From a virus: DNA of 64,000 bases. The DNA lies in the IMG/VR virus record IMGVR_UViG_3300020579_000009, positions 1 to 64,000 of that record. One strand, given 5' to 3'. A program made the position numbers and the translations under genes. This document shows, piece by piece, positions 8,048 to 59,454 of the stretch. Numbering within the stretch: position 1 is the stretch's first letter; each line of letters starts with the position of its first letter. A model generated the notes under the pieces. It had not been told where the DNA came from and did no database searches. It saw only the letters and a list, made by a program, of their open reading frames with translations.

Positions 8048-8577
8048 CAGCTTAGGCGGTTGACGTTCCCGCCCCTCCCAAAGATTCCACCACCGCCACC
8101 TACTCCACCGCCTACTCCGCCTTGATTCACTGGCGTCTGCGAAACAGGTATGACCGTGGCACCGCCGCCAAGCGCTGCACCCGGAGCCGGAGCCGATACC
8201 GCGCTTCGGTCGCCATTCTTATCAATCGCCTGTACCCAATAGAATCGCGTAACGGTGTCATTGAGACTCGCTCGCATGAAGGAATTGCTTGAACCTCCCA
8301 AGTTTGCCGGAACGGTTGTTAGCGGCACGCCAGCCGGAACTTGGTTGGTAGAGGTTTCAAAGACAGCATAACTCGCCGCATTGACAACTTCGTTCCATGC
8401 AACCTGAACTGCATTGGGATGTGAAATCGTCGTTACCATCGGCGCAGCGGGAGGAAAAAGACTGCCCTGCACCTGATTGGCAACGGTCATCAGCCAGGTC
8501 AGAAAGTCGTAGGTCGCTGGGCCAAGAGCGGAGTCCTGTGGCACACCGTTCCACACGCGACGTGGGCCGCTAGGCAT
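8047..8577 (-). CDS. Tail protein with Fn3-like domain
   Basis: VQVAWNEV..AASYAVF...RFYWVQAIDKNG..S..S; Gly-rich tail. Confidence 0.65.
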   Translation of the reverse strand: MPSGPRRVWNGVPQDSALGPATYDFLTWLMTVANQVQGSLFPPAAPMVTTISHPNAVQVAWNEVVNAASYAVFETSTNQVPAGVPLTTVPANLGGSSNSFMRASLNDTVTRFYWVQAIDKNGDRSAVSAPAPGAALGGGATVIPVSQTPVNQGGVGGGVGGGGGIFGRGGNVNRLS

Positions 8578-9103
8578 TCTTGGCCACCTTAAAAATCTTC
8601 TTGGTGTTCACGGGATTCCCATTAGGAATAAGCGAATGCACGTTGAATCCGTCACGGATTACGGCGATGCTTCTGACATCAGTAACAAACAGGCAATCGC
8701 TTTCCCTGTCCAGCAACTTCTCGAAGTTTGCTATGAATCGCTTCTTGTAGCTTGTGAGAGAGTCTCCTTCGCGCAGAGGGATGTCAGGGTTATCGCGCCA
8801 TTTTTCCTCGACAGCTCTAATAGCTCCATCAGCGATAGCAGAATCGCGGGCATGAAAACGTCCGAAATTGAATCTCCGGTATCCGTAATCAGTTCGAACC
8901 GGGACTCCAAGCTCATTCCCGGCCACATTCCCTGCCTCAGAGTCCAAGTCTGAGCTGACAACATGAGCCACCTTGCCTTTCAGTGGAGCGAGTAGCGCTC
9001 GCCATTCATTCTTGGCCTTACGCTCCAGCGGCACGAAACGCCAGCCAGAGACACGACCGCGCCTGTCTAGCTTGTTTTCTGGGGCAGCCACAACGTAAAT
9101 CAT
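8570..9103 (-). CDS. Histidine phosphatase (PGM)-fold protein lacking catalytic residues
   Basis: RVSGW..VPL, VVSSDL, RRFNFG, NPDIP..GDSL..R; RHG replaced by AAP. Confidence 0.7.
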   Translation of the reverse strand: MIYVVAAPENKLDRRGRVSGWRFVPLERKAKNEWRALLAPLKGKVAHVVSSDLDSEAGNVAGNELGVPVRTDYGYRRFNFGRFHARDSAIADGAIRAVEEKWRDNPDIPLREGDSLTSYKKRFIANFEKLLDRESDCLFVTDVRSIAVIRDGFNVHSLIPNGNPVNTKKIFKVAKNA

Positions 9104-10944
9104 TGCGTCTCTCCCAGCATGTCTTTGAAGTCGTCAATCTGACGCTGGATTATCCCGCGCTCCGCGCCCTTCGCGCCTTGTAGTTTTTTCTCCGCGGCAG
9201 CCAGCGATTCCCTTAGCACTTCCTGTCGCATCATGGCGTCCGAGGCTCCGCCAAATGGAGTAGGATTGCCTCTTGGCATGTCGCCCCCGCCTTTAAGCGC
9301 GGCAGCGGCGGCCGCCTTGTTGGGGTAAACCTTCTTCGGAGAGATGTTCTCAGGCTCAAAGCCTTTCCCGCCGAGAAAGTCAGCAGCAGCGGGATTCCTT
9401 AGCATTCGAGGGACACCAGCACGAAGTCCAGCGCTTGTAGGCGATAGCTTGGCGATGAGCAAATCCATCTTGGTAGGTCGCGACAAGCGTTGAACGGTAT
9501 CAATGGCCCCGGAGCGCCCTACTTCTTGGTTGATTTTGTCCATGTTGATGCCGAAAGGCTCGTACTTGCTAAGAATGTCGAGCGTCTGTACGCGGGACTT
9601 TCCGGTGAGCGGTTCCATGATGTCGCTGGCATTTTCGCCCGCGAGTGTTTTTGCAATAGGTGAGCGGTGGAAGTCATCGAGGTAGCCCTTCCACTTCGCA
9701 TTGGCGTCAATCCATTGCGGCTCTTGGCTCGCATCCCGTGCGCCTTCACGCAGGATTTTCGAGAGTTCTCCGTAAGCCGCTGAAGCAGCCGCTTGTGCCG
9801 GGCCTTGTAAGCGGCCCATCTGCCTGCCCAAGTCCGAGCGTGCCTGTTTCACTTCCTCGAAGGTCATTCTTCCCGCTTGTGTCGTTCCAATGTCTCCTAC
9901 AGCAGCTTTAATCTCATTTGGCTGGAAACCTTGCTCCTTGAGAGCCTGTGCGATTTCATCCGGGGCCATGCCGCCTTGCTTCAGGCGATTCACGAAGTCG
10001 GCGGTATTCTTATTGACGAAATTAGCCATCGAAGGCTTTTCCGGCGTGGTCAGTTTCTTAAGGCTGGTTGGCAACTGACTTTGATCTTCGAGCGTGTCAC
10101 CCATTGCCGCTGAAACCCTGCCACGCACTTCCGCCTTGTCAAAGGCCCCTTCTGGTTTTGCAGAGTCAACGGCCTGAGATACCTGAGCCATTGCCTGTTG
10201 AGCGTCCTGGTGGACGGCATCAGCTACGCCAGCGACATGTTTTTGTAGTTCGAGCGCGTGCGCGTGCTGGTCGGCAAGGACACGGACTTTTGATGGCCCT
10301 TCGTTGAGAATCTCTCTTGCCGTATTTTGGAAGGCGGATTTTCCTATGGGGTCAGCAATAGCTTCGGGAACTTTCTCTCCGCCTTTTAGCGTAGCGAGTT
10401 GTGTCCCAAAAGCCGCAATGTCGTGGGCCGACTTACCAACGTCGTACTGCCGCATCTCGCGCTGTGGGCCGCCTGTAACGTTGGTCAATTTACGAAAGAA
10501 ATTGTCGATTAAAGGATTGATTGCATCCATCGCATTGCCGAAGCCAGAAGTAACCGCGCCCGGAACGGCGACAACTGGATTCGTTGTCATGCTGGCTTTC
10601 ATATCTTCCGGCTTGAGCGTCCAGAACTTGCCGATAGTTTTTGCCTGTTCAGTAAGATTTGAACCCAAATCCGAAACAGGGTTCATCGTTTCAGGGATGC
10701 CAACGCCGCTAGCAGCGCCAAGTACGGATTCCCGCGCAATCGTCCCGGCAGTAGAACCATCATCGGGAGCAGTCAACTGCTTGACATTGAGAATTGGCCC
10801 ACCTTTGCGAGACTGCATTGCCCCCGGTTGCATGGCGGCAAGGTGCTGTTCGATAGCCTGATTCACAGATGCATCATCCATTGAGCCGGGAAAACGGACA
10901 GCTCCGACACCTGGAACGCGCACGATTTTGTCCCCATCAGGCAC
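9100..10944 (-). CDS. Large internal virion/DNA ejection protein
   Basis: 614 aa, helical and Ala/Gln-rich, at the ejection-protein position; shares KGGPILN with 55098..57077. Confidence 0.65.
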   Translation of the reverse strand: MPDGDKIVRVPGVGAVRFPGSMDDASVNQAIEQHLAAMQPGAMQSRKGGPILNVKQLTAPDDGSTAGTIARESVLGAASGVGIPETMNPVSDLGSNLTEQAKTIGKFWTLKPEDMKASMTTNPVVAVPGAVTSGFGNAMDAINPLIDNFFRKLTNVTGGPQREMRQYDVGKSAHDIAAFGTQLATLKGGEKVPEAIADPIGKSAFQNTAREILNEGPSKVRVLADQHAHALELQKHVAGVADAVHQDAQQAMAQVSQAVDSAKPEGAFDKAEVRGRVSAAMGDTLEDQSQLPTSLKKLTTPEKPSMANFVNKNTADFVNRLKQGGMAPDEIAQALKEQGFQPNEIKAAVGDIGTTQAGRMTFEEVKQARSDLGRQMGRLQGPAQAAASAAYGELSKILREGARDASQEPQWIDANAKWKGYLDDFHRSPIAKTLAGENASDIMEPLTGKSRVQTLDILSKYEPFGINMDKINQEVGRSGAIDTVQRLSRPTKMDLLIAKLSPTSAGLRAGVPRMLRNPAAADFLGGKGFEPENISPKKVYPNKAAAAAALKGGGDMPRGNPTPFGGASDAMMRQEVLRESLAAAEKKLQGAKGAERGIIQRQIDDFKDMLGETQ

Positions 10945-11912
10945 TAAGGGTTACTCCCCTGAACAGGCTGAATCCCTTGTCCGGGAACATAGACATGCGT
11001 TGCACCATCCCCAGATGGTTTTGGCTTCTTCTGGTTCTGCTTGGCTTGCACTTTGTTGGTCGCAGGCGGAGATGGCAACGCAGCGGTCGGGCCACCCGTT
11101 ACTGGAGCGCCTCCAGACGATACTCCCGGCATCCCCGCCCCGCGAGCTTCGCTTACCCGTTTCGTTACATCATCGAGCCCAAAGGCTTGTGAGAGAATCG
11201 GGTGTTCAAAGGCAAGATTCTGAATCGACTGAATAGCCTGCAATCCTTCGGCAGTTCCCTTCTGGTTTAGAGCGGAGTTGGCAAGGTCAAGAAAACCTTG
11301 CTTAATTCCCATGCCTGTTACGGCGAGTTCATACTTCGCTTGCTCAATCCCTACCTGTTGGACGCGTAGCTTGTAAGTTTTCTCAAATTGCGCGGCCTGA
11401 TTATCAAGACGCTGCTTTGCTACAGAAAGCCGTCCTGCCGCCATGTCTTTCTGCCAGTCGTTCTTTTCCGCCGCGAGGTCGGCCTGTTGCTGCTTGATTT
11501 GGTTGGCGGTATCGCCTTGCTCTTTCTTGCGTTGCACGTCCTCGGCGCGAGTGTCGGCATTCTGCTTCGCTACGTCGGCCAAGTCTCTGCGGTATCCAAG
11601 CTCGCCCTGCTGATAGGCTCCAGTCTGAGCAAGGCGAGCCATCGTCTCGGCCTTCTGTGCTTCAAGCTGCTGGGCCTGCAATCTCTGCTCTGGCGGCATG
11701 GAAGCCCAGCCATAGGACTGTGCTCCGCCAGCAAGCGCCTGAATAATCTTGGCGATAATCGGATGAACGCCAGGGTCAATCTGCCCTTGCATTTGTGGGA
11801 CAGACGAAGCCATCGGGTTAGAAAGGGATTGCTGCGCCTGCTGCATCATCCCCTGCGTTGGGTCAGGCGGCTGTTGGACTAGAGGATTCTGAGGAGTGCT
11901 CATAGCGTCCAA
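10944..11912 (-). CDS. Internal virion/ejection protein
   Basis: Gln-rich coiled coil with Pro-rich termini; synteny. Confidence 0.6.
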   Translation of the reverse strand: MDAMSTPQNPLVQQPPDPTQGMMQQAQQSLSNPMASSVPQMQGQIDPGVHPIIAKIIQALAGGAQSYGWASMPPEQRLQAQQLEAQKAETMARLAQTGAYQQGELGYRRDLADVAKQNADTRAEDVQRKKEQGDTANQIKQQQADLAAEKNDWQKDMAAGRLSVAKQRLDNQAAQFEKTYKLRVQQVGIEQAKYELAVTGMGIKQGFLDLANSALNQKGTAEGLQAIQSIQNLAFEHPILSQAFGLDDVTKRVSEARGAGMPGVSSGGAPVTGGPTAALPSPPATNKVQAKQNQKKPKPSGDGATHVYVPGQGIQPVQGSNP

Positions 11913-12592
11913 CCTCCTGTCGTCGGCGTGCCACCACCTTGTGTGGGCACCGTAGGCACACCTGGAACTGGCCCGAACACGCTAGGAGGCAAAGAGCCAG
12001 GTGTATCGCCAGGCGCTCTCCCCGGTACTTGATTACCCTGTCCTAGTAAGTTTGCAAGAACGCCGCCAAGCCCGCCAAGTCCACTGCCAAGACTTTGATA
12101 AGGGAGTTGCGCTGAGACGTTTGGCTGATTCTGTGACGCTCCCGCCATAGCTCCGGCAGAAGTAAGTCCCTGCTGCGCCTGAAACTTGATTTGCTCGTTA
12201 TTCAGTAGATTCGCTAGATAGTTTCCTGCTCCGCTTGCCGCCATGCCTGAGCCGATATTTGCAAGTCCCGCCGCAGTAGTTCCACTTGGCCCATAGCCCA
12301 ATCCTGTTTGACCTATCTGTTCGCGGAACTGTCCCGCTGCGTTGTTGCCTTGCTGGGCGTTCTGCGCTGCCGCCGCAGCTTGAATATTCTGAAGGAACGG
12401 GCTTCCAGATTTCGTATAGGGCGTATAGAATGCTTCCGCTTGGTCGAAGGCTTTCTGCTTATCGGCCATTTCCTGCTGGGCGATTTGTTCCTGCTGTGTC
12501 AGAGCCTTCTGTTGACGGCCTCCAGCCTTGGATGCCTCGACAGCTCCGGCGATGGCAGCCCCCGCAGCGATAAGCCCTGAAATCAGCGGCAT
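11900..12592 (-). CDS. Small ejection protein (P22 gp7 / T7 gp14-like position)
   Basis: MPLISGLIAAGAAIAGAV N-terminus, Gln-rich, YTPYTKSG motif, Gly-rich; follows the GNAT gene. Confidence 0.7.
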   Translation of the reverse strand: MPLISGLIAAGAAIAGAVEASKAGGRQQKALTQQEQIAQQEMADKQKAFDQAEAFYTPYTKSGSPFLQNIQAAAAAQNAQQGNNAAGQFREQIGQTGLGYGPSGTTAAGLANIGSGMAASGAGNYLANLLNNEQIKFQAQQGLTSAGAMAGASQNQPNVSAQLPYQSLGSGLGGLGGVLANLLGQGNQVPGRAPGDTPGSLPPSVFGPVPGVPTVPTQGGGTPTTGGWTL

Positions 12593-13032
12593 CGAAGTTC
12601 TTTCATGTACGTCACCTCTACCTGCTTATAGCCTAATCTCTCATACAGCTTTCCAACTTCCGCGTTCGGCGCGGTGAATCCCATGCGCGTTGCGCCCATC
12701 TCTCGTGCCTGTTTCTCTGCTTCCCACAAGAGTTTTATCGCTCCGCCTTCCTTGCGTTCTTGCGGCTCGACGTACCACATAATTTCCGTTGCCGTTGGCT
12801 CTCCAGTGAAGTAATGAGGGAAAATAATAAACCCTAAAAGCCCAGCCACTTTGCCACCATCGTTCTCATATAGCAGGACTTTCCCGTTTGCTCCGCCGAT
12901 GACATTGAGCGCCAATTTTGCGCTTTCCTCCGGCGTGTCTTTTAGCATCCCGGCGTATGGGCCATCCTTAAGAGACTGACTACCCAGCCTCACGATGTCG
13001 GATACATCCTCAACCGTCGCCGCTCGTATCAA
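12583..13032 (-). CDS. GNAT-family acyltransferase
   Basis: MIRAATVED, ATEIMWYVEPQERKEGGAIKLL, KLYERLGY motifs. Confidence 0.9.
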   Translation of the reverse strand: MIRAATVEDVSDIVRLGSQSLKDGPYAGMLKDTPEESAKLALNVIGGANGKVLLYENDGGKVAGLLGFIIFPHYFTGEPTATEIMWYVEPQERKEGGAIKLLWEAEKQAREMGATRMGFTAPNAEVGKLYERLGYKQVEVTYMKELRCR

Positions 13033-13253
13033 TGCGCCTCCGCGTAGTTCACAATGTCCTGCACCGATAAAAGATTCTGCGCCTCGCAGTCCGGTATCTC
13101 TTTCCCTAGCCCGTCCTCAAGAGCCTGAATCAAGCTGGCCATTTCGAGAGAGTCCGTAACCAGTGTGACGAGTCGGCAGTCAGGCGTCACCAGCTCCCCC
13201 GTTTCTTGCTGGATAACTCTAGTCACTTTCTCCAATGTCTCGCTTCTCATCAT
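13029..13253 (-). CDS. acpP: Acyl carrier protein
   Basis: 74 aa, acidic; LVTDSLEMASLIQALEDGLGKEIPDCEAQNLLSVQDIVNY matches the ACP DSL phosphopantetheine motif and the EIPD..A...V....Y C-terminus. Confidence 0.85.
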   Translation of the reverse strand: MMRSETLEKVTRVIQQETGELVTPDCRLVTLVTDSLEMASLIQALEDGLGKEIPDCEAQNLLSVQDIVNYAEAH

Positions 13254-13801
13254 TGCGCCATCCTTAGCCCTCTGCCGCCGCCACCGTTACCGCCTCCCAA
13301 ACTTCCAACCGTGGGTGCTGTTGGCACGGTGCTCGCTGCCTGTGGAGCGAAATTAAATCCTAGTCCGTTAAGCGCCTGCTGGAGCCAGGTCATCGGGAGT
13401 CCCGCTTGTGGCGCATTGCCTTCCTGTCCAGATGGGCCGCTGATTTCAGAAAGATTCCCAAGTGGGTTAACTTTCATCACGTTGCCGCCTTGCTTATTGT
13501 TGCTAAACAGTCCTCCGATAGCCGTGGCAAGATTTTGCAAGTAAGAAGAGTCAAAGCCCTGCGATGGGCCACTAGCGCGAATCGCTTGCGGCCCAAGAGT
13601 ATTACTAGTGCCGGGAGCCGGGGCGAGTGGAGGTGTGGGATTTGCAGGGCCTTGTGGGTTCCTGCCATTTTGCGCTGGGCCTGGCAATGCTCCATTTCCG
13701 GGGAACTGTGTCGCTGGATTAGGGCCTTGCTGTGCGGGGCCGGGCATCTTTCCGAACGCCCCGCCAAACGCCGAGCTTGGCCCCATGTAAAGTCCTGGCA
13801 T
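13250..13801 (-). CDS. Pro/Gly/Gln-rich virion-associated protein
   Basis: FDSSYLQNLATAIGGLF is conserved with FDSAYRQDLATYAGGLF of 58867..59454. Confidence 0.7.
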   Translation of the reverse strand: MPGLYMGPSSAFGGAFGKMPGPAQQGPNPATQFPGNGALPGPAQNGRNPQGPANPTPPLAPAPGTSNTLGPQAIRASGPSQGFDSSYLQNLATAIGGLFSNNKQGGNVMKVNPLGNLSEISGPSGQEGNAPQAGLPMTWLQQALNGLGFNFAPQAASTVPTAPTVGSLGGGNGGGGRGLRMAQ

Positions 13802-13802
13802 A

Positions 13803-16427
13803 CTATCTCCCTACGATACCTGTATACGCTACTTCGTACCCGCGCAGCTCATAAAATCCCGGCCCGGACGGGAAAGTACATCCAATCTGAAACCTTCTCC
13901 CCTTCACTGGCCTGAATCCGCCGAACTTGAATTTAGCAGGGGAGTATTCGAGAAACAATGGATTTGAGTTGCTATCCACGCCGGGAATGAGATTTGTGGT
14001 CAGTGGATTCACCCCAATGACGAACCTATCGTCATCAAAGGCATTCACCGCCCAAGCCCATCCCTGCGAAGCAAGGTTGTTCGGAATCTGATTAGTGAGT
14101 GCCCGCATCCATTCGAAGGTCTTAATCATGTGCGGATCTTCGTTGCCGAAGGCATGAAGCGTTACGCCGGGAGTAGGAACGCTGCGCTCCGCCGAAATCG
14201 TGAAATAGCTGGGCTGCCAATCCACGTCTGTAATCAAGTCCACGTCGCCAACAGACAGGTGATTCGTGGAGTTCCCATCGTAGGACGTGACGATGCTCTC
14301 GCAGTTGATGTCGTACTGATACCAAGTCGGCGCATTGGTCGCCATGTCGAAGGTGAAATAGCTGGGCTGACCATTGGAAGCAAGAAGGTCAAGGTCGAGC
14401 AGAAGCAGTTTGTTGTTGAAAGTTGAAGAATCAAGAGCAATGGCAAGGGCTAGCCAGGAACGGTCGCCTTTCTTATAGAAACTCATTCTGGCGAATTGCA
14501 ATCGTGCTCCGTTGATACGGTTGAGCACGTCCTGAACGGGCTTGCCTACGTTCTTTGGCGCGTAATGGTCGGTGAAAAGCCAGACTTCCCGGTCGGAGGA
14601 AAGCCACATCGCTCCAAGCGGAGTTACTGCTGTAGCATAAGGCGAAGCACAACCAATCTTATAAGGGAGCCTCTGAATCGTCGCCGCAAGCTGCGCTGGA
14701 TTTGCAATAGTGTTGTCACTGAGAAGCCCCGTCAATTTGTACATGTCCTGACGGTTTGACCAGATGATGAGCCCGGTTGGGAGATTCGCCATGCCGTTAA
14801 GTTGCCCGTCACCCAAAGGCATCGTCACTGTGTTCAGCGGAGAGAAGCATTCTGGCGGCTGGCCGATGACTGTAGCTTCGATGTTGCTATAGAAAAAGGT
14901 TTGGAGATTAGCCACGACTCCATAAACGAGCACTCGCCCTTGGTAGTCTTGACAGAATGCCCCAATGGGCGGAGGAACATTGTAAATTTGCGCAATCTCG
15001 CTGGTGAATGGAGGGTTGGGCGGTTCGGAGTTGGCGGTATCGTTGAATTCCAGTCCCGCAAGCAACGCTGTATTCCCTATCGGGTTGAAGGCATTCCTGC
15101 CAATTAGGAAATAAACTGGCTGGCCATCGCCAGTAGCATAGAGTTTTACGAATCCCTGTGCTGGAGAGGAATTTAGTAATTGCGGATCGTAAACCTGAAA
15201 ACGCGCTCCGCCAATTCCACCGCCGTTATAAGGGAGATGCAATGTCATGGAAGTGGCGCTAGCAACCGCCGATATGTAATTCCCTGTAAAGGCGGAACCT
15301 TCAACCCAAATAGCCCGTCCAATCCATGCCGATGTGAATGCGGTGCCGACTCCGGTAACGGTGGCGTTGCCGTTCACGACTGTAACCGTTCCGACTTCCA
15401 CAAGGTCTATGGTTCCGGTTTGGGACGCATACTTCACGAATTGCGAAGCGGGGGAAGGGGCGGAAGTCTCTCCATTTACATCTGCCTCCCAAGCCCATTG
15501 ATAGGAACGCCCGACTGTTTTGGTGATACCTAGCGTCACCGTTCCAGCTCCGCTCGTAGCTGCTGGCCCTACTTGCACGAAGGTAAAAGTCGAAGCTCCG
15601 GTCTTGGTAATTTGAACTGCTACACCTGCCGCTGTGTTGAAAGTGGTATCGGTCACGCCTGAGATGCCAACATAAACCCCCGTCACCATTCCGGCTGGTA
15701 GTGGCGCGGTCGTGGTAATGGTCACGATGTTATTTGCGCGTACTGCTCCTGTGGGAGCGGCCTGAATCGTTGCCGTAGAGCCAGCTACGAGCGTGATGCT
15801 TGGAGAAACGTCAGGCGCATCCAATCCCCAAAACATGAAGAGAGGAGAAGCCTCGGCAAGCGTGTTTGGCACAGTCTTAGAACGAAATTGCCCATTTGTC
15901 TCATAAATAGCATTTCCGATTCTGGTTCTCATCCACGGGCCGTTAAGAACGGAAAGCGCAAAAGGGAAGTCCGCACTAGGAGATTGACCATTAAACCTAT
16001 CCCATACTTCATCGAGTGGCTGTACTAGTGTTGCGGCAACCATTCCAGAAATAGAAAGCGGGTTATTACAAATCCAACGCGGCCAGAATGCGTCATCATT
16101 ATTGTCGAAGAGTACGCGGTTAACCAAAGTCGCCGGGGAACCAAATCCAGTCGGGTCCAGGAAGGAATACATGGAAATAATACGATTGCCATTGGCCGTG
16201 AATCCACTAGCGGTGGAGTTGAAAAATGGTGCCCAGCGAGCCCTGCGAATCGTGCCGAACTGCCCGGCGTAGACCTGCGAGGAAGCCGCCCAGAATTGCG
16301 GCGTAAGCAAGTCGGGACTGGTGTAGCCGTTATATCCTCCTACAAGGGAATCCAGCGTAAGGACTCGCGGCCCTGTCTCGTTCTGTGTCTGCTCGAACTC
16401 CGCTGGTGCTCTGCGTCTCTCGGCCAT
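13803..16427 (-). CDS. Tail tubular/DNA stabilisation protein (P22 gp10 / T7 gp12-like)
   Basis: 874 aa, beta-propeller-like (IGCASPYATAVTPLGAMWLS, KNVGKPVQD); follows the adaptor. Confidence 0.75.
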   Translation of the reverse strand: MAERRRAPAEFEQTQNETGPRVLTLDSLVGGYNGYTSPDLLTPQFWAASSQVYAGQFGTIRRARWAPFFNSTASGFTANGNRIISMYSFLDPTGFGSPATLVNRVLFDNNDDAFWPRWICNNPLSISGMVAATLVQPLDEVWDRFNGQSPSADFPFALSVLNGPWMRTRIGNAIYETNGQFRSKTVPNTLAEASPLFMFWGLDAPDVSPSITLVAGSTATIQAAPTGAVRANNIVTITTTAPLPAGMVTGVYVGISGVTDTTFNTAAGVAVQITKTGASTFTFVQVGPAATSGAGTVTLGITKTVGRSYQWAWEADVNGETSAPSPASQFVKYASQTGTIDLVEVGTVTVVNGNATVTGVGTAFTSAWIGRAIWVEGSAFTGNYISAVASATSMTLHLPYNGGGIGGARFQVYDPQLLNSSPAQGFVKLYATGDGQPVYFLIGRNAFNPIGNTALLAGLEFNDTANSEPPNPPFTSEIAQIYNVPPPIGAFCQDYQGRVLVYGVVANLQTFFYSNIEATVIGQPPECFSPLNTVTMPLGDGQLNGMANLPTGLIIWSNRQDMYKLTGLLSDNTIANPAQLAATIQRLPYKIGCASPYATAVTPLGAMWLSSDREVWLFTDHYAPKNVGKPVQDVLNRINGARLQFARMSFYKKGDRSWLALAIALDSSTFNNKLLLLDLDLLASNGQPSYFTFDMATNAPTWYQYDINCESIVTSYDGNSTNHLSVGDVDLITDVDWQPSYFTISAERSVPTPGVTLHAFGNEDPHMIKTFEWMRALTNQIPNNLASQGWAWAVNAFDDDRFVIGVNPLTTNLIPGVDSNSNPLFLEYSPAKFKFGGFRPVKGRRFQIGCTFPSGPGFYELRGYEVAYTGIVGR

Positions 16428-17398
16428 TAGCGTGACCCGCTAGGAGAAACGGTGTAGCGCAAAAGCCTTTGCGGGAAAGGGCGTACCCTTGCTGGTTCCT
16501 GCCGCTGGCGAACCATGATACTGTCGCGCATGGAGTCCAGCTCCGTCTTGGCTAGAGCCGCCCAAGAAGTGAAGCGCGAATCATTGCCCGGCGTGGACAT
16601 GAAGTTACGCGTGGCGATGGTCGAAATGACGTTGTGATGCCCATCTGGAATATCAGGAACGGAACAAAGATTGTAGTTCGTAAGCGCCGGGATTACAGGG
16701 TTTGGAGCGGTCAAGAGTGTCAAAGCCGTGTCGCTGGCAATAGCTTTTACCCGGAACGTTTGGTTGTTCGCACCTTGATTGAAAACCAGTTCCATCCCGA
16801 TGTCGGTGTCCTGGTCATTGCCGGGCAGGGCGGAAATAAAATCAGCGGGGACTACTTGCGTGAAGTTCGTCCCTGCTCCCGTGATTGCTGTTCCGGCGCT
16901 CGACACCGTGCCGTTGAACACGATGGCCAGCGGCATGAAAATGAAGCTGTAGGTCACTTCAATCTGCGTGCCTACTGGCAGAGGTTGAGCAAAGAGCACG
17001 CTGAACTTGCTGAATAGAATGTAATAGTATGGCCCGCTAGTGGCCGCTATCTGCGGAGTGATTTGCTGCTGCGCCTGAAAGTCATCGTCGTTCCAGCTGC
17101 GCGGCTGACCCTTGCTCCAGTTTGTGTCGCCGGGCTGAAGGATGCGGAGGCGGTCAATCTGGAAGGCGCGAAGCGAAACAGCGGTATTGAGATTCCCGTT
17201 AAAGTTAGCGAGGAAGTCAAACTCTACCGCTGAGGTTGCAACGGTTACGATTTTCTGGTCGGTGAAATAGCTGTCCTCAAGCTGGAGGATATAATCCCAA
17301 GTCTCTTTGTACGCAGCGTTTACTTCGTCCAGATACTCGGAAATATCGTAGGACGGATTACGCCGCTGCACTCGCTGGCAAAGAGAAAGGGCATTCAC
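16427..17398 (-). CDS. Head-tail adaptor protein
   Basis: EYLDEVNAAY..W and PDIPDGHHNVI adaptor-type helices; ortholog of 62207..63220. Confidence 0.7.
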   Translation of the reverse strand: MNALSLCQRVQRRNPSYDISEYLDEVNAAYKETWDYILQLEDSYFTDQKIVTVATSAVEFDFLANFNGNLNTAVSLRAFQIDRLRILQPGDTNWSKGQPRSWNDDDFQAQQQITPQIAATSGPYYYILFSKFSVLFAQPLPVGTQIEVTYSFIFMPLAIVFNGTVSSAGTAITGAGTNFTQVVPADFISALPGNDQDTDIGMELVFNQGANNQTFRVKAIASDTALTLLTAPNPVIPALTNYNLCSVPDIPDGHHNVISTIATRNFMSTPGNDSRFTSWAALAKTELDSMRDSIMVRQRQEPARVRPFPQRLLRYTVSPSGSR

Positions 17399-40154: not shown

Positions 40155-40973
40155 ATGGCAAATGAGCAACTGGAAATCCCTAGCGAGAAGCACCGCTTCA
40201 GCAACACAAAAGAAGTGCGAGACGAAATCAAGGCTCTTGCCGCGAATGGCGAGACGAAAGAGCTTCCTAAGCTGAACCTGCTGCAAAAGCTCGCTGCCAT
40301 CGTTGCGGAAATCGACAACGTGGACAAGCGCGGGCGCAACGAGTTCCAAAAATATGCATATGTCAAGGCCACGGATGTCGCTTGGCTTGTCAGGAAAGCC
40401 CTGTCCAGCCGGAATATCTACCTGGTGGCCGACGTGGTGGAAGTGCGGAACTACGAAATCCCTGCTAGGGAAGGCTCCATGCAAGCCGTGGACGTGAAGA
40501 TGCAGTTCAGCTTCTTTGATGGCGATGTGGTGGATGGCATGCCCGTTGTGCTCCATGCCTTCGGTACGGGCACCGACAAAGGCGACAAGGCCATCTACAA
40601 GGCCATGACCGGCGCTTTGAAGTATGGGCTTCGCCATGCTTTCCTCATCCCAGATGAGTCTGACCCCGAAGGCGATGCCAGCGTGGACAAGCTGACCGCC
40701 AATGCCAAGAAAGTCGGCGAAGAGAAGGCCAAAGCCATCAAGGAAGGCAAGAATCCACCTGTCCTTAGCCTCTTCTACATCTGGAACGATGAGAACCAGA
40801 CGGCTGAGATTGTGGGGGCCGAAGAGCTGAAAACGGCCAACAAGGACATCCTCAAGCAGTTCTGGAGCAATGCGGCAAAGGCCATCATCGTCACCGGTGA
40901 GCAGTTGGAAGGGCTGAAGTACCAGTTTGAGCAGCGGGAAGTGCCGTTTAGCCCATTGAAGGCGAAGGCATGA
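40155..40973 (+). CDS. erf: ERF-family ssDNA-annealing recombinase
   Basis: VDKRGRNEFQKYAY, GTGTDKGDKAIYKAMTGALKY.L...F.I....DPE. Confidence 0.88.
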   Translation: MANEQLEIPSEKHRFSNTKEVRDEIKALAANGETKELPKLNLLQKLAAIVAEIDNVDKRGRNEFQKYAYVKATDVAWLVRKALSSRNIYLVADVVEVRNYEIPAREGSMQAVDVKMQFSFFDGDVVDGMPVVLHAFGTGTDKGDKAIYKAMTGALKYGLRHAFLIPDESDPEGDASVDKLTANAKKVGEEKAKAIKEGKNPPVLSLFYIWNDENQTAEIVGAEELKTANKDILKQFWSNAAKAIIVTGEQLEGLKYQFEQREVPFSPLKAKA

Positions 40974-41982: not shown

Positions 41983-42525
41983 ATGCGACTGTATTTTATT
42001 CGCCGGGACATGGAAATTAGCGATGCTTTGCCGCTAGATATGCCCTATTTGCGAAAACTCCAGAAGGAAGAATCTTTCGCGCTTGGCTGGATTCCTGAGC
42101 AAATCTTTGACAGGGTTTGGGCTGGAACTTTCACGGGATGGATTTTGCTTTGCCGCGTGAATGGCGACCCTGTGGGTTTTTGTTTTTGCGCTCCGGGCTA
42201 TAAAGCCCCTTTTTATGGAAGAATCTATCAACTCGCGGTGCAAGCCGATGCGCGGCGCTATGACTATGGAACATTCCTTGCCGACACAGCGCATTCGCTT
42301 ATTTCGGAATCAGGCTCGCAGGGAACAACGCTGCGATGCGCCCATGATTTGCCGTCGAACTTCTTTTGGGATGCTCTGGGGTGGAAGCTGCTAGGGATTA
42401 TTCCCGAAGGTTCCAGCGTGGGGGACTCGCCGCGCAAGACAAAGCGAGCCTTGCACAAGCGATTGAAAGTAGGCACGTCGCTATTCCCGTTGGTCGGCCT
42501 TGAACGTGAACTGGCTCGCAGCTAG
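41983..42525 (+). CDS. GNAT-like acetyltransferase
   Basis: VGFC, RIYQLAVQADARRYDYG, LRCAHDLPSNFFWDALGW. Confidence 0.75.
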   Translation: MRLYFIRRDMEISDALPLDMPYLRKLQKEESFALGWIPEQIFDRVWAGTFTGWILLCRVNGDPVGFCFCAPGYKAPFYGRIYQLAVQADARRYDYGTFLADTAHSLISESGSQGTTLRCAHDLPSNFFWDALGWKLLGIIPEGSSVGDSPRKTKRALHKRLKVGTSLFPLVGLERELARS

Positions 42526-44240: not shown

Positions 44241-44984
44241 ATGCTCATGGCGAACACAAAAGTAGGACTTGCGTACCGCAGCACTCGGCGGAATTGGGTA
44301 AAACTGTGGACGCATGAATGGTTGCGCGGCACTTCGCGGTTTGAGTTGAATCCAGCGCAGCGGAGCGCGTTTGTGGACTTACTGGCGATGGCCGGAGACT
44401 CAAAAGTACCGGGGAAGGTCTGCGCTGGAATTGATGTTGATGGGTCGATTCTCGGCTTTCCGCTGGATTACATTGCTGGCGTTCTGACGATGGATAAGCC
44501 GTATCTCAGGGACACGCTATTCCTTCTTGAAAAGCAGGGAAGAATTGAGACTTCACTGGACGCCAGAGGTAACTCGATTATCACTCTCACAAGCTGGGTG
44601 AAATATCAGTCGGAGTATCATCGCCAGAAAAGTTACAGGTCAAACTCCGATGAGGTGACAGGCAAAGTTACAAGTGAAACTCCTGCGAAGTTACCAGTAG
44701 AGGGAGAAGTAGAGGTAGATGGAGAAATAGAAGAAGAAACATCTTTTGGTGTGTTTTGGGATTTGTATCCTCGCAAAGTCGGAAAGGCAAAGGCAACTGT
44801 CCTGTGGAAGAAACTAAGCTCTAGACCGGAGCTTCAAAAGAACGCCTTGCATGGGCTGAAACTTTGGAAACAATCCGAGCAATGGAACCGCGACGACGGA
44901 AAGTACATCCCGTACTGTTCTACTTTTCTGGCGCGAGAGCAATGGGCCGATGAGCCGTGGACTGGAGCTTTTGAAGGGCGCTAG
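44241..44984 (+). CDS. Phage replication initiator (replisome-organiser-like)
   Basis: WVKLW..W...S, LLAMAG, WVKYQ, FGVFWDLYPRKVGK..A...W, YIPY.STFL..E.W. Confidence 0.8.
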   Translation: MLMANTKVGLAYRSTRRNWVKLWTHEWLRGTSRFELNPAQRSAFVDLLAMAGDSKVPGKVCAGIDVDGSILGFPLDYIAGVLTMDKPYLRDTLFLLEKQGRIETSLDARGNSIITLTSWVKYQSEYHRQKSYRSNSDEVTGKVTSETPAKLPVEGEVEVDGEIEEETSFGVFWDLYPRKVGKAKATVLWKKLSSRPELQKNALHGLKLWKQSEQWNRDDGKYIPYCSTFLAREQWADEPWTGAFEGR

Positions 44985-45009
44985 GCGCTGCGGGAAGGTT
45001 GGCGCGGCG
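44883..45009 (+). repeat. 127-bp exact direct repeat, copy 2
   Basis: Identical to 1-127; covers the 3' end of the replication gene. Confidence 0.95.
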
Positions 45010-54594: not shown

Positions 54595-55101
54595 CTATCC
54601 GCCCCACTCGTAAATCCTACCCCGCTCGAACTTCGTCGCCACGCCCGTTAGGTTCTCTATCTCAAAAGGTGCCGCGACAACGACGTAAGTAGCTCCATTC
54701 CGCTTGAGTTTGTCTTTAGATGCCGCCAGTCTATTCTTGAAACTGGTCAGCGAATCTCCCCCTGGTATGGGAATATCGGGATTGGCTTTCCAGCGTTCGC
54801 GCATATCGGAGAGCAGTTTTTCCGCTTTGTCCTTGCTCTGGCCGTGCGCGTTGGCAAAGTTGAAGCGTCTGAGACTTTTCCATTCCTCGCAAGGCACGCC
54901 AAGATTGCGGGCAAGGAAGAACCCGCTCTGCCCATCCAAGTCCGAGCACACTACCTTCTGAGCGCCGAGTTCCTTGAGGCGCGGGGTCAATTCCTTGAGT
55001 TTTTTGAGCTTTTCCCGTGGAGCAGGTGTCTGCCGCCAGCCCATGACTCTTTGCTGTTGGTCGTAGATGGATTCCGCTGGGAGTACGAAAAGCACCTTCA
55101 T
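54595..55101 (-). CDS. Histidine phosphatase-fold protein lacking catalytic residues
   Basis: RVMGW, VVCSDL, LRRFNF, NPDIPIPGGDSLTSF..R; RHG replaced by LPA. Confidence 0.7.
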   Translation of the reverse strand: MKVLFVLPAESIYDQQQRVMGWRQTPAPREKLKKLKELTPRLKELGAQKVVCSDLDGQSGFFLARNLGVPCEEWKSLRRFNFANAHGQSKDKAEKLLSDMRERWKANPDIPIPGGDSLTSFKNRLAASKDKLKRNGATYVVVAAPFEIENLTGVATKFERGRIYEWGG

Positions 55102-57077: not shown

Positions 57078-58145
57078 CTATTTATACCAAGTCTTTGTTT
57101 TGGCATCCCATTGAGCGTCGGCAGGCACACCCTTTGGCCGGGCGGGTGCTGAACCTTGCGGCGCGGCTGCCGTGCCTGCCTTTGGCGTTGGCCGGAACTC
57201 CGGCGACGGCGCACTTTGCACCTGCGGAACATCTACTCCAAGAGCATTGAAGAGCCACGATTTCACGCTAGGGTCACGCGCTGCGGCTTCGTTGGCAATC
57301 TGCGTCCGCGTTCCCGACATGACCTGAGCAACATCTTCCGTGGTCGCATCCTTGTGTAGAGAACGGTAGTTCCTACCTGCTTCGTTAGCCGCTGCTTGCG
57401 CCTCATCCACGATGTTATGGCGGACTTTCTCATCCGTGGCGGCTTGCTTGAAGTTCCAGTTATGCACCATGTTGTCGTGCTGGTTCTTGACACTCTGAAC
57501 GTAGGCATCGGCGCGTTCTTTCATGCTATCCGCGCGAGATGCAGCCGCAGCGCCCATCTGGCCGCGATAGTTGGCCAGTCCGGCTGCCTGAGTGAGTCCG
57601 GTAGTGGCGCGGAGTTCCTCTGTAGGGATGGCTTCCTGGTCTTTGAGAGCTGCAAGCTGGTCGCCCAGAGATTTCTGTTGTGCTCCGTACTGCCGTATGC
57701 CCGGCCCGTAGACAACGCCCTGTACATCTTGACCGGGGCGTGTAGCAGCTCCTAACGTGATAAGGGCCTGCCCTAGATTGTGAAAAAATCCCTTCACCCC
57801 TTCCCCGTGCCGAATGTCGGGCGTCCAACCCATCTTTGGCGGTTGCATCGCAGCCATTTTTTTCTGGATGTCCTGCTCTTGGCTGCCGATTTGTTCTAGC
57901 CTTCCGCTGGCCTGCTGATATTGAGGAAGGTTAGATACTTGGCTGACCATCGAAGCTAGGTCTGTCCCACCAGTAGCCGGAGCACCTCCTTGTGGCTGGA
58001 CAGGACTGGTCGGAGGAATAGCGGAAGGCCCCGGTGCAATAGGCACTCCAGCTTGTGGCTGCCCACCGCCCATCATCCCCATCAGTTGCATGAGCTGCGG
58101 AGGAAGTGGGCTATCCGTTGCTTGGGTTACGTCGCCTTCAGCCAT
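57078..58145 (-). CDS. Internal virion/ejection protein
   Basis: Gln/Pro-rich coiled coil; synteny. Confidence 0.6.
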   Translation of the reverse strand: MAEGDVTQATDSPLPPQLMQLMGMMGGGQPQAGVPIAPGPSAIPPTSPVQPQGGAPATGGTDLASMVSQVSNLPQYQQASGRLEQIGSQEQDIQKKMAAMQPPKMGWTPDIRHGEGVKGFFHNLGQALITLGAATRPGQDVQGVVYGPGIRQYGAQQKSLGDQLAALKDQEAIPTEELRATTGLTQAAGLANYRGQMGAAAASRADSMKERADAYVQSVKNQHDNMVHNWNFKQAATDEKVRHNIVDEAQAAANEAGRNYRSLHKDATTEDVAQVMSGTRTQIANEAAARDPSVKSWLFNALGVDVPQVQSAPSPEFRPTPKAGTAAAPQGSAPARPKGVPADAQWDAKTKTWYK

Positions 58146-58870
58146 TATTTCCCCTGACCTGTTGGAATGCCGCCAGCACCGAAGATGCCGCCAGCCATTT
58201 GCCCGATTGCGCTCATCGTTTCAGCGGCGGTATTTGTCGGCTGCTGAATGCTAGTGCTCGTTTGCCCCAGCAAAGAGGCTGGATTAAAGAGTTGCGCGAG
58301 CGAAGAAAGTCCTTGCGCTCCGCCCATCTGCATCATTTCGTTCTGGAAAAGATTCTGCAAATACATCTGCGAAAGATTTTGGGCTTGTCCGGTAGCTTCT
58401 CCACCAAGCATGGCAGCCTGCATTCCCGATGGTGCGGCACCATAGCCGGAAGCGTTCAGTCTTTGTTTCGACAGAGCCGCTGCATTTTCTCCATGGTTCA
58501 CGCCTTGCCCGAAACTGGCTTGCTGCTGTTGCTGATAATACGGCGAACCAAGATTCATCAGTTGCTTGAAAAAATCCATTGCCGGGCCTGCGGAACCGCC
58601 CATCATCTTCGTAAACCAAGGAATCAAGGCGTTTCTTGCCAAGCCCGTTTGCAGGTTGGTTTCCGCAAGGTTGGCAGCCAAAGCTCCACCATCCTTAGTG
58701 CCAAAGCCATAAGGATTTGTCGTTCCCGTCGCGCCAGCCGGACTGGCGGAAGGCGGAGAACCAAACAAGGAAGGCCCGCCAGGAATACCGGGCATGTTTG
58801 TGCCTGTCTGTCCCGGCCATCCAAGAGGATTAGAGCCTTGTCCCTGTAACGGGTTAGGCATCGTACTCAT
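58145..58870 (-). CDS. Small ejection protein
   Basis: GSPYYQ..., GYG..PSG..AA, YLQNLFQNE match GSPFLQ, GYGPSG, YLANLLNNE of 11900..12592. Confidence 0.7.
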   Translation of the reverse strand: MSTMPNPLQGQGSNPLGWPGQTGTNMPGIPGGPSLFGSPPSASPAGATGTTNPYGFGTKDGGALAANLAETNLQTGLARNALIPWFTKMMGGSAGPAMDFFKQLMNLGSPYYQQQQQASFGQGVNHGENAAALSKQRLNASGYGAAPSGMQAAMLGGEATGQAQNLSQMYLQNLFQNEMMQMGGAQGLSSLAQLFNPASLLGQTSTSIQQPTNTAAETMSAIGQMAGGIFGAGGIPTGQGK

Positions 58871-59454
58871 TCAAACGCCATCCTTCCTCCGCGCTGGCTT
58901 CCACTACCTTGCTGCAAAAACTGCTGTAGCCACGCCTGCATGGGATTCGGAGTTTGCGCCGGTGCTTTAGGTGCCGGAGGCGCGTAGCTGAAAGGATTCC
59001 CTCCAAGAGCGTTCTGCAAGAGTGTGTTCGGCATTCCCAGAACAGGGTCGCTGCCGGCGCCTGTAGCGGCTCCGCCAAAGGGGTCGTTGCTCGTCGGATT
59101 GAAAGACAGGTTCCCTCCAGGCCGTCCGAAGAGTCCTCCCGCATAGGTAGCAAGGTCTTGACGATAGGCAGAATCAAACGGCCCTGTGCCCGTAGCCCGC
59201 ACCGACTCAGCGCCCATTACATTCGCAGGAGGAGGCGGAGCTTGGTAGGCCGGAGTACCACCGGGAGGATTTTGCGCTGTAAACTGCCCTGCTCTTACCA
59301 TCTGCGATGTCCCACCAGAAGTAGGCGTTTGGTTTTGCGCCATGGGCTTTGCGCCGACAGGGCCAACGGAGGGGCTTTTCCCGCCAAAGTAAGGCACGCC
59401 AGTCTTGCCGGGTTGCCCCATCATCACATTCATAGGGTTAAACATTGTTCCCAT
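58867..59454 (-). CDS. Pro/Gly/Gln-rich virion-associated protein
   Basis: Ortholog of 13250..13801. Confidence 0.7.
   Translation of the reverse strand: MGTMFNPMNVMMGQPGKTGVPYFGGKSPSVGPVGAKPMAQNQTPTSGGTSQMVRAGQFTAQNPPGGTPAYQAPPPPANVMGAESVRATGTGPFDSAYRQDLATYAGGLFGRPGGNLSFNPTSNDPFGGAATGAGSDPVLGMPNTLLQNALGGNPFSYAPPAPKAPAQTPNPMQAWLQQFLQQGSGSQRGGRMAFE

Follow-up and report, generated by a model that had tools for sequence, protein, structure and literature searches.

The window analyzed here is a 64,000-nt stretch of viral DNA, positions 1 to 64,000 of IMG/VR record IMGVR_UViG_3300020579_000009, which is a 78.7-kb record of an uncultured podovirus from soil. Its late operon contains a gene for an acyl carrier protein (ACP) placed directly in front of a gene for a GNAT acyltransferase, which is in turn followed by the ejection-protein genes. 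The operon is located on the minus strand, and its order is adaptor, nozzle-like protein, p183, ACP, GNAT, p230, p322, p614 and a histidine-phosphatase-fold protein. The genes at the center of the locus are the following, with IVP denoting internal virion protein:

13250-13801, minus strand: p183, a Gly/Pro/Gln-rich protein of 183 amino acids, located between the nozzle and the ACP, at the upstream edge of the insert.
13029-13253, minus strand: ACP of 74 amino acids, AcpP-like, with Ser35 in a DSLE motif, assigned from a PF00550 match near the cut-off, the family profile and the fold.
12583-13032, minus strand: GNAT acyltransferase of 149 amino acids with a TTG start codon, in the IVP-A slot, assigned from PF00583 and phrog_1249.
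11900-12592, minus strand: p230, an IVP-B / P22 gp7-type ejection protein of 230 amino acids, assigned from family hhalign comparison and its N-terminal motif.

The reading frames and their overlaps were found as they had been described in the initial annotation. The stop codon of p183 lies within the start codon of the ACP gene (ATGA), while the stop codon of the ACP gene lies within the TTG start codon of the GNAT gene (TTGA, a 4-nt overlap), with a GGAGG sequence just upstream. The p230 gene begins before the GNAT gene ends, with its ATG 8 nt ahead of the GNAT stop codon and an overlap of 10 nt. In the explanation preferred here, the three coupled genes, ACP, GNAT and p230, would act together as a module for acyl transfer with which the ejection operon begins.

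The hidden Markov model search that had been proposed to check the gene assignments gave a clear result for the GNAT, which scored 43.2 bits against a cut-off of 20.7 for PF00583, while the ACP taken alone remained just below the threshold, with 20.3 bits against 20.8 for PF00550 (19.3 bits in the genome scan). The ACP has 22 database homologues with 62-93% identity, and PF00550 was present in the precomputed matches of 12 of them. A profile built from the ACP alignment extended with more distant phage members (A4) matched solved ACPs of type II fatty acid synthesis (FAS-II) with E values from 5e-18 to 1e-13, including 5e-18 for the Aquifex protein and 9e-14 for E. coli AcpP. The D34-S35-L36-E37 sequence was invariant in the family alignments A1 and A4. 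The AlphaFold2 (AF2) model of the ACP (predicted local distance difference test score, pLDDT, of 84) contained helices at residues 5-18, 28-31, 35-49, 55-58 and 64-73, which formed a four-helix bundle with Ser35 opening helix II. This is the fold and the serine position of FAS-II AcpP, and comparison with FAS-II ACPs using Foldseek gave a template modeling (TM) score of 0.85 and a root-mean-square deviation (rmsd) of 1.3-2.0 Å at 33-39% identity. Hence, by profile comparison and predicted fold the window ACP is a genuine AcpP-type carrier, and the initial claim of a real ACP with an intact DSL serine motif was well founded.

There are also differences between the phage ACP and AcpP. Loop I of the phage protein is shorter than that of AcpP, and the helix-II position aligned to Glu41 of the E. 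coli protein is Ser or Asn in most phage ACPs. In AcpP this glutamate of helix II is important for partner binding. The gene is located in a late operon and not between fabG and fabF. Among the 13 distinct loci described below the carrier serine is the sole motif residue common to all, as one of them, L150, has ASLD in place of DSLE. The retention of this serine down to about 33% ACP identity would be expected only if the prosthetic group matters. The ratio of nonsynonymous to synonymous substitution rates (dN/dS) was 0.11 for the ACP, both against a close and against a distant relative, and 0.04 for the GNAT. Both genes are under purifying selection, and therefore they are not chance open reading frames.

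The GNAT also matched phrog_1249 (7e-23), and PF00583 was matched by all 50 members of its family. The AF2 model (pLDDT 94) was aligned by VIA-align to 9mgt_A with a Z score of 17.4 and an rmsd of 2.2 Å over 131 residues. The nearest structures were ordinary coenzyme A (CoA)-dependent GNATs, with Z scores of about 15-17, and they were a mixture of aminoglycoside, polyamine and protein N-terminal acetyltransferases, none of which was preferred (Foldseek, wide VIA-align search). The R-x-x-G-x-A loop of motif A is intact (RKEGGA, residues 93-98), and E83, W86 and Y130 are conserved, with Y130, the motif B tyrosine, being nearly invariant. Judged by its sequence and predicted fold, the protein is an ordinary small canonical PF00583 GNAT.

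The position of this gene is a known one. Homologues of the GNAT with 28-33% identity occupy the same slot, behind the tail appendage or nozzle gene and ahead of the ejection proteins, in Roseobacter phage SIO1 (gp26.2), Pseudanabaena phage Pam1 (gp11) and a Zobellviridae phage. IVP-A has been defined as an acetyltransferase-family, non-structural morphogenesis gene ahead of IVP-B, for example T7 gp13 and P22 gp14 (Hardies 2016, PMC4819975), and the SIO1 GNAT has been equated with IVP-A in the cobavirus paper (PMC6775973). The gene order nozzle, p183, ACP, GNAT and IVP-B-like protein places the window GNAT in the podoviral IVP-A slot. As in T7, P22, SIO1, the VpV262-like phages and the cobaviruses, a small acetyltransferase-fold gene is found between the nozzle or tubular-tail-B gene and IVP-B (PMC4819975, PMC6775973), which agrees with the earlier statement that a GNAT-like gene before the internal virion proteins is common in podoviruses. 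The described examples of the slot are without a carrier protein, while the GNAT of the window and those of 12 other distinct loci are preceded by a coupled ACP. The present family is also canonical PF00583, with no detectable sequence link to the T7 gp13 and P22 gp14 families: the GNAT profile A3 compared by hhalign with T7 gp13 and P22 gp14 as single sequences, which are weak targets, gave probabilities below 1%, and no match of the GNAT family to PF11090 (T7 gp13) or PF11039 (P22 gp14) was obtained in Pfam at E values up to 1.

The distribution of the pair was analyzed by scanning IMG/VR with the ACP profile, a wide GNAT profile and a clade-specific GNAT profile, together with one metagenome scan using the ACP profile. 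The phage-type ACP was found at 13 distinct loci, which were the window, the viral loci L004-L007, L010 and L147-L150, and the metagenome loci L064, L065 and L066. In all 13 the GNAT is immediately behind the ACP, at identities down to about 33% for the ACP and 47% for the GNAT. The ACP thus recurs with this GNAT elsewhere, which is what the initial annotation had made its proposal depend on. The remaining 77 metagenome matches scored at most 74 bits on the phage-ACP profile, had no adjacent GNAT, and are read as probably cellular AcpP-like proteins. For 16 of the 22 ACP clusters the longest contig was of the same size as that of a GNAT cluster, which indicates further co-located pairs. No fused ACP-GNAT protein was found among 89 GNAT homologues of 122-173 amino acids (search range 81-261). 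In genome collections neither the ACP profile nor the nozzle protein gave a match, and the scan with the GNAT-clade profile gave one ACP-less relative (L146), on a contig of a Candidatus Sulfotelmatobacter (Acidobacteriota) metagenome-assembled genome. This relative, together with the soil origin of the other relatives, suggests that the host is probably a member of the Acidobacteriota. In tblastn against phage records the ACP matches were weak and unrelated only, while the GNAT had five relatives, all ACP-less, and no cultured phage model carries the ACP-GNAT pair.

In a tree of 68 virion GNATs the pair was confined to one soil-phage clade of 20 rows (support 100/99). Twelve ACP-linked GNATs formed one clade (support 96/84), the 13th, L150, was sister to four ACP-less rows (L146, L151, L153 and L154), and the basal rows of the soil clade, L152, L157 and L158, were without the ACP. 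The simplest history consistent with this tree would be one gain and one loss of the ACP. The pair was found in two tail backgrounds, one with the SU10-type adaptor and the 874-amino-acid nozzle, and the other P22 gp10-like (L006, L010, L147-149); therefore, it moves with the ejection module.

These observations bear on the possibility that the ACP acts independently of the GNAT, either by boosting or hijacking host fatty acid synthesis or by titrating SpoT, MukB or the FAS enzymes. Phage-encoded ACPs are routinely counted among the auxiliary metabolic genes (PMC11705849, PMC11924767, PMC8224337), the window ACP is closest to FAS-II AcpP, and the phage does not supply loading enzymes, all of which would fit such a role. 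On the other hand, the gene lies within a late virion operon with stop/start codon overlaps on both sides, in the loci found the phage-type ACP never occurs without this GNAT, and it travels together with the ejection module from one tail type to the other. The acidic residue equivalent to Glu41, with its role in partner binding, is replaced by Ser or Asn in most members. For the decoy of SpoT or MukB, which had been the alternative offered in the initial annotation, nothing was found in favor, and the strict coupling to one GNAT clade in a late operon argues against it. We consider a metabolic or decoy role very improbable.

The R-x-x-G-x-G/A loop of motif A is kept in all 12 GNATs of the main ACP clade. 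In the lineage of L150, L146, L151, L153 and L154 the sequence RKSFTAL was seen in place of this loop, and LLWEAEK of helix alpha-3 was changed to LLRGAER. In the same degenerate-loop lineage the ACP is aberrant in L150 and is gone in L146, L151, L153 and L154. The degeneration of the loop beside the loss of the ACP fits a functional link between the two proteins, as judged from two independent contrasts only.

The state of the loop is also relevant to an explanation in which no group is transferred. The holo- or acyl-ACP would be stably bound to the IVP-A GNAT with its pantetheine arm in the CoA site, similar to the binding of mitochondrial acyl-ACP to LYR proteins, and the complex would act in assembly as a chaperone that brings the hydrophobic ejection proteins into the procapsid. 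The conserved serine is compatible with such a pantetheine-mediated contact, and the ACP is small and acidic, like chaperones of hydrophobic translocators. The T7 IVP-A is a non-structural morphogenesis factor without known catalysis (PMC4819975), and many members of the GNAT family are retained despite degenerate cofactor loops, which implies that the slot can work without catalysis. However, E83, Y130 and the R-x-x-G-x-G/A loop, the full set of catalytic-looking features, are retained in the ACP-linked clade. In addition, the two proteins were not found fused or obligately paired, and the ACP was lost at least once. Overall, a non-catalytic partnership appears unlikely.

The record itself contains a comparator for the locus. 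Bases 1-127 are identical to 44883-45009, an exact repeat of 127 bp, and on sequence grounds units A and B of the record are the genomes of two distinct, though related, phages in a head-to-tail arrangement, with the join probably being an assembler artefact. Because the record holds two separate related phages, unit B could be used as a natural comparator:

58145-59454, minus strand: unit B comparator, homologues of p183 and p230 directly joined, identified by blastp.

The p183 protein matched the product of 58867-59454 with 41% identity, the 874-amino-acid nozzle matched that of 59457-62207 also with 41%, and p230 matched that of 58145-58870 with 35% in its central part (residues 52-145 against 97-190). 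The p183 and p230 homologues of unit B are adjacent, without an ACP or a GNAT in between, as had been noted initially, and there is one PP-binding match in the whole 78.7-kb record. The single other GNAT of the record (41983-42525) lies outside the virion genes. The unit B homologue of p230 has an unrelated, non-hydrophobic N-terminus without the MP start.

The assignment of p230 was made through its relatives. The p230 family (A6) was aligned by hhalign from residue 1 with the family found behind the GNAT in the P22-like relatives (A7), with a probability of 93% and an E value of 3.7e-7, and the L006 member of A7 matched phrog_598, "DNA ejection", at 3.6e-29. Direct comparison with the model phages gave 21% only for A7 against P22 gp7, and less than 1% for A6 against T7 gp14. 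Through these family matches p230 is identified as a homologue of the IVP-B / P22 gp7-type ejection protein, which bears out the earlier reading of the downstream gene. The protein begins with MPLISG, followed by a Gly/Ala-rich hydrophobic segment and then by a Gln-rich coil.

To describe the N-termini of such proteins, genes whose start lay no more than a few bases from the GNAT stop codon were surveyed in the window, L001-L062 and L146-L158, which include both ACP-linked and ACP-less loci. The gene behind the virion GNAT encoded a strongly hydrophobic, Gly/Ala-rich N-terminus in 43 of 52 unique cases, so that the different N-terminus of the unit B protein, which had been pointed out before, is real and is part of a wider pattern. 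Residue 2 was A, P, V or G in 42 of the 43 hydrophobic N-termini, and residue 5 was Ser or Thr in 35 of them, as compared with a background of 15% at residues 7-25. The residues A, P, V and G at position 2 all permit removal of the initiator Met. The N-terminus of IVP-B in the soil clade reads MP[LIVF][ILA][ST], while the wider consensus behind virion GNATs, M-[A/P/V/G]-hydrophobic-hydrophobic-[S/T], precedes a membrane-like segment. Since unit B is without both the GNAT and the hydrophobic N-terminus, the GNAT appears to be tied to the IVP-B N-terminus beyond mere position, and the M-[A/P/V/G]-x-x-[S/T] N-terminus may be a recognition site of IVP-A-type GNATs. There is a precedent for processing of this end of the protein, because the N-terminal 20 residues of P22 gp7 are cut off by a host protease (sequence-record note).

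The link to p230 could also be positional only. In that case carrier-dependent transfer would be real, with the acyl group placed on p183, the nozzle, a host lipid, lipopolysaccharide or peptidoglycan, or a small molecule. Whatever speaks for a functional ACP-GNAT pair serves this explanation equally, many small-molecule acetyltransferases are among the closest structures, and the p230 N-terminus shows no feature that sets ACP-linked apart from ACP-less phages. It is opposed by the synteny of the GNAT and the hydrophobic N-terminus across very diverged podoviruses, at near-zero intergenic distance, and by the fact that both features are missing together in unit B. We regard a different acceptor as quite unlikely.

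The explanation that we prefer is the carrier-dependent acylation of an ejection component, most likely in the N-terminal region of IVP-B. The observations in its support are the genuine ACP, its adjacency to the GNAT, the clustering of the pair in one clade, its presence in two tail backgrounds, the intact loop, the pattern of IVP-B N-termini and the purifying selection. In such a pathway, the apo form of the phage ACP would be converted to the holo form by a phosphopantetheinyl transferase of the host, and the enzymes of host fatty acid synthesis would charge it with an acyl group. The IVP-A-type GNAT would then accept the acyl-phosphopantetheine arm in its CoA-type site and move the acyl group onto an amine or hydroxyl of a virion or ejection component. 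The likeliest acceptor would be the product of the next gene, the IVP-B / gp7-type ejection protein, and the lipid would aid the retention of p230 in packaging or its insertion into the host envelope at infection.

Several points weigh against this explanation. No phosphopantetheinyl transferase (PF01648), ketosynthase, or acyl-ACP synthetase / AMP-forming ligase was found in the 78.7-kb record, and, in the absence of loading enzymes from the phage, both activation and loading of the carrier would fall to the host. The GNAT resembles ordinary acetyl-CoA enzymes in sequence and fold, its intact cofactor loop is equally compatible with the use of acetyl-CoA, and no carrier-dependent GNAT (FeeM, CurA, SbzI or ApxC) was among the structural matches listed by Foldseek and VIA-align. 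Most virion GNATs of the family, and several members of the soil clade (L146, L151-L158), function without an ACP, and because so many relatives are without it the ACP must be dispensable for the basic IVP-A role. The raw table of motif A against ACP presence (12/1/6/48) was discarded as statistical evidence, as it comes down to two independent contrasts on the tree. Within the clade, a search for a feature by which the ejection-protein N-termini of ACP-linked phages differ from those of ACP-less phages found none, and the N-terminal residue after Met removal would be Pro, which is an unusual acyl acceptor. The loading of the ACP, the acyl transfer and the acceptor are all predictions made from the sequence. 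Taking these points together, we give carrier-dependent acylation of an ejection component somewhat less than an even chance. Its more specific form, a private lipidation system in which the phage ACP would pass a host-made fatty acyl group to the IVP-A GNAT, which would acylate the N-terminal region of IVP-B for insertion into the envelope, is somewhat unlikely.

Two kinds of known systems can be compared with this proposal. HlyC uses the AcpP of the host rather than a dedicated carrier, and the acylation of RTX toxins takes place on internal lysines. Like the module proposed here, HlyC/ApxC performs an acyl-ACP-dependent fatty acylation of a membrane-inserting protein and is encoded beside its substrate (mentioned in PMC8784127). 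However, the HlyC-type analogy drawn in the initial annotation did not hold at the level of the enzyme. The window GNAT gave no match to the HlyC family PF02794 in Pfam scans at E values up to 0.1, nor at up to 1, and PF02794 was not among the 25 families most matched by 50 members of the GNAT family; the Pfam scans gave no FeeM or LuxI signal either. A better analogy is offered by carrier-dependent GNATs, which are established for GdvG/AprG (goadvionins), FeeM with FeeL, SbzI with SbzG, and the decarboxylases CurA and GphF (PMC11685415, PMC8784127). In these systems, too, a GNAT-fold enzyme adjoins a dedicated small carrier protein with which it is co-inherited, and the chemistry proposed here is that of GdvG, by which a ribosomal peptide is acylated at its N-terminus with a chain delivered on an ACP (PMC11685415, PMC8784127). 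The class has no shared signature (PMC11685415), and no specific similarity of sequence or structure to the phage GNAT was seen. Those enzymes are encoded in bacterial natural-product clusters with their own chain-building enzymes, while here the genes belong to a virion operon, there is no synthase, and the acyl group would go to a structural protein of 230 amino acids.

The remaining genes of the operon were assigned as follows:

16427-17398, minus strand: SU10-type adaptor (PF24175).
13803-16427, minus strand: nozzle / tubular-tail-B-like protein of 874 amino acids, from its position after the adaptor and weak phrog tail matches.
10944-11912, minus strand: p322, second putative ejection protein, 322 amino acids, from position (IVP-C / P22 gp20) and size only.
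9100-10944, minus strand: p614, third and largest putative ejection protein, 614 amino acids, from the position of IVP-D / P22 gp16 and hhalign.
8570-9103, minus strand: histidine-phosphatase-fold protein (PF00300, 2.7e-8).

The p614 family (A8) was aligned by hhalign with the gp16-like family A9 at 71% probability (E value 3.7e-5, 83 columns), and the L006 member of A9 matches phrog_770, "DNA transfer protein". The p322 protein, conserved in L004 and L005, gave no family match in Pfam and phrog scans. The corresponding order in L006 and related loci runs from a P22 gp10-like protein (phrog_578) through a small open reading frame, ACP, GNAT, a gp7-like protein and a protein of about 500 amino acids to a gp16-like protein (phrog_770). 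The p183 protein gave no family match and is conserved in L004, L005 and L064. In both phages of the record the nozzle and the ejection module are separated by such a Gly/Pro/Gln-rich low-complexity protein of about 185 amino acids (13250-13801 and 58867-59454), which may be a substitute for a plug or needle. The histidine-phosphatase-fold gene (8570-9103 and 54595-55101) is translationally coupled behind the largest ejection protein in both phages as well as in L004, L005 and L064, with no tie to the presence of the ACP. The second GNAT (41983-42525, plus strand; PF00583, 25.2 bits) is unrelated to the virion GNAT and belongs to the early region, where an ERF-family recombinase (40155-40973) is encoded nearby.

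That infectious particles require the T7 gp13 / P22 gp14-type gene has been established for decades. To our knowledge, no activity has been assigned to the acetyltransferase-like gene that heads podovirus ejection operons. A literature search uncovered no publication in which a phage ACP is connected with virion or ejection genes, or with internal virion proteins, and where phage ACPs were mentioned it was only as presumed auxiliary metabolic genes (PMC11705849, PMC11924767, PMC8224337). The IVP-A slot was already known, while a dedicated carrier protein coupled to the GNAT of this slot is not described in the papers searched. A GNAT clade with its own retained ACP, in which the carrier serine and the cofactor loop are intact, is the clearest genomic hint so far of real acyl transfer in this slot, and it points to acyl-ACP as a donor that can be tested and to the hydrophobic IVP-B N-terminus with the sequence M-[APVG]-x-x-[S/T] as a candidate acceptor. 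If the proposed acylation is true, it would provide the first enzymatic function for IVP-A of the T7 gp13 / P22 gp14 class and the first phage-encoded protein lipidation system, and it would mean that an "ACP" entry in a virome need not be an auxiliary metabolic gene. Such a system would be the bacterial-virus counterpart to the myristoylated membrane-penetration proteins of animal viruses.

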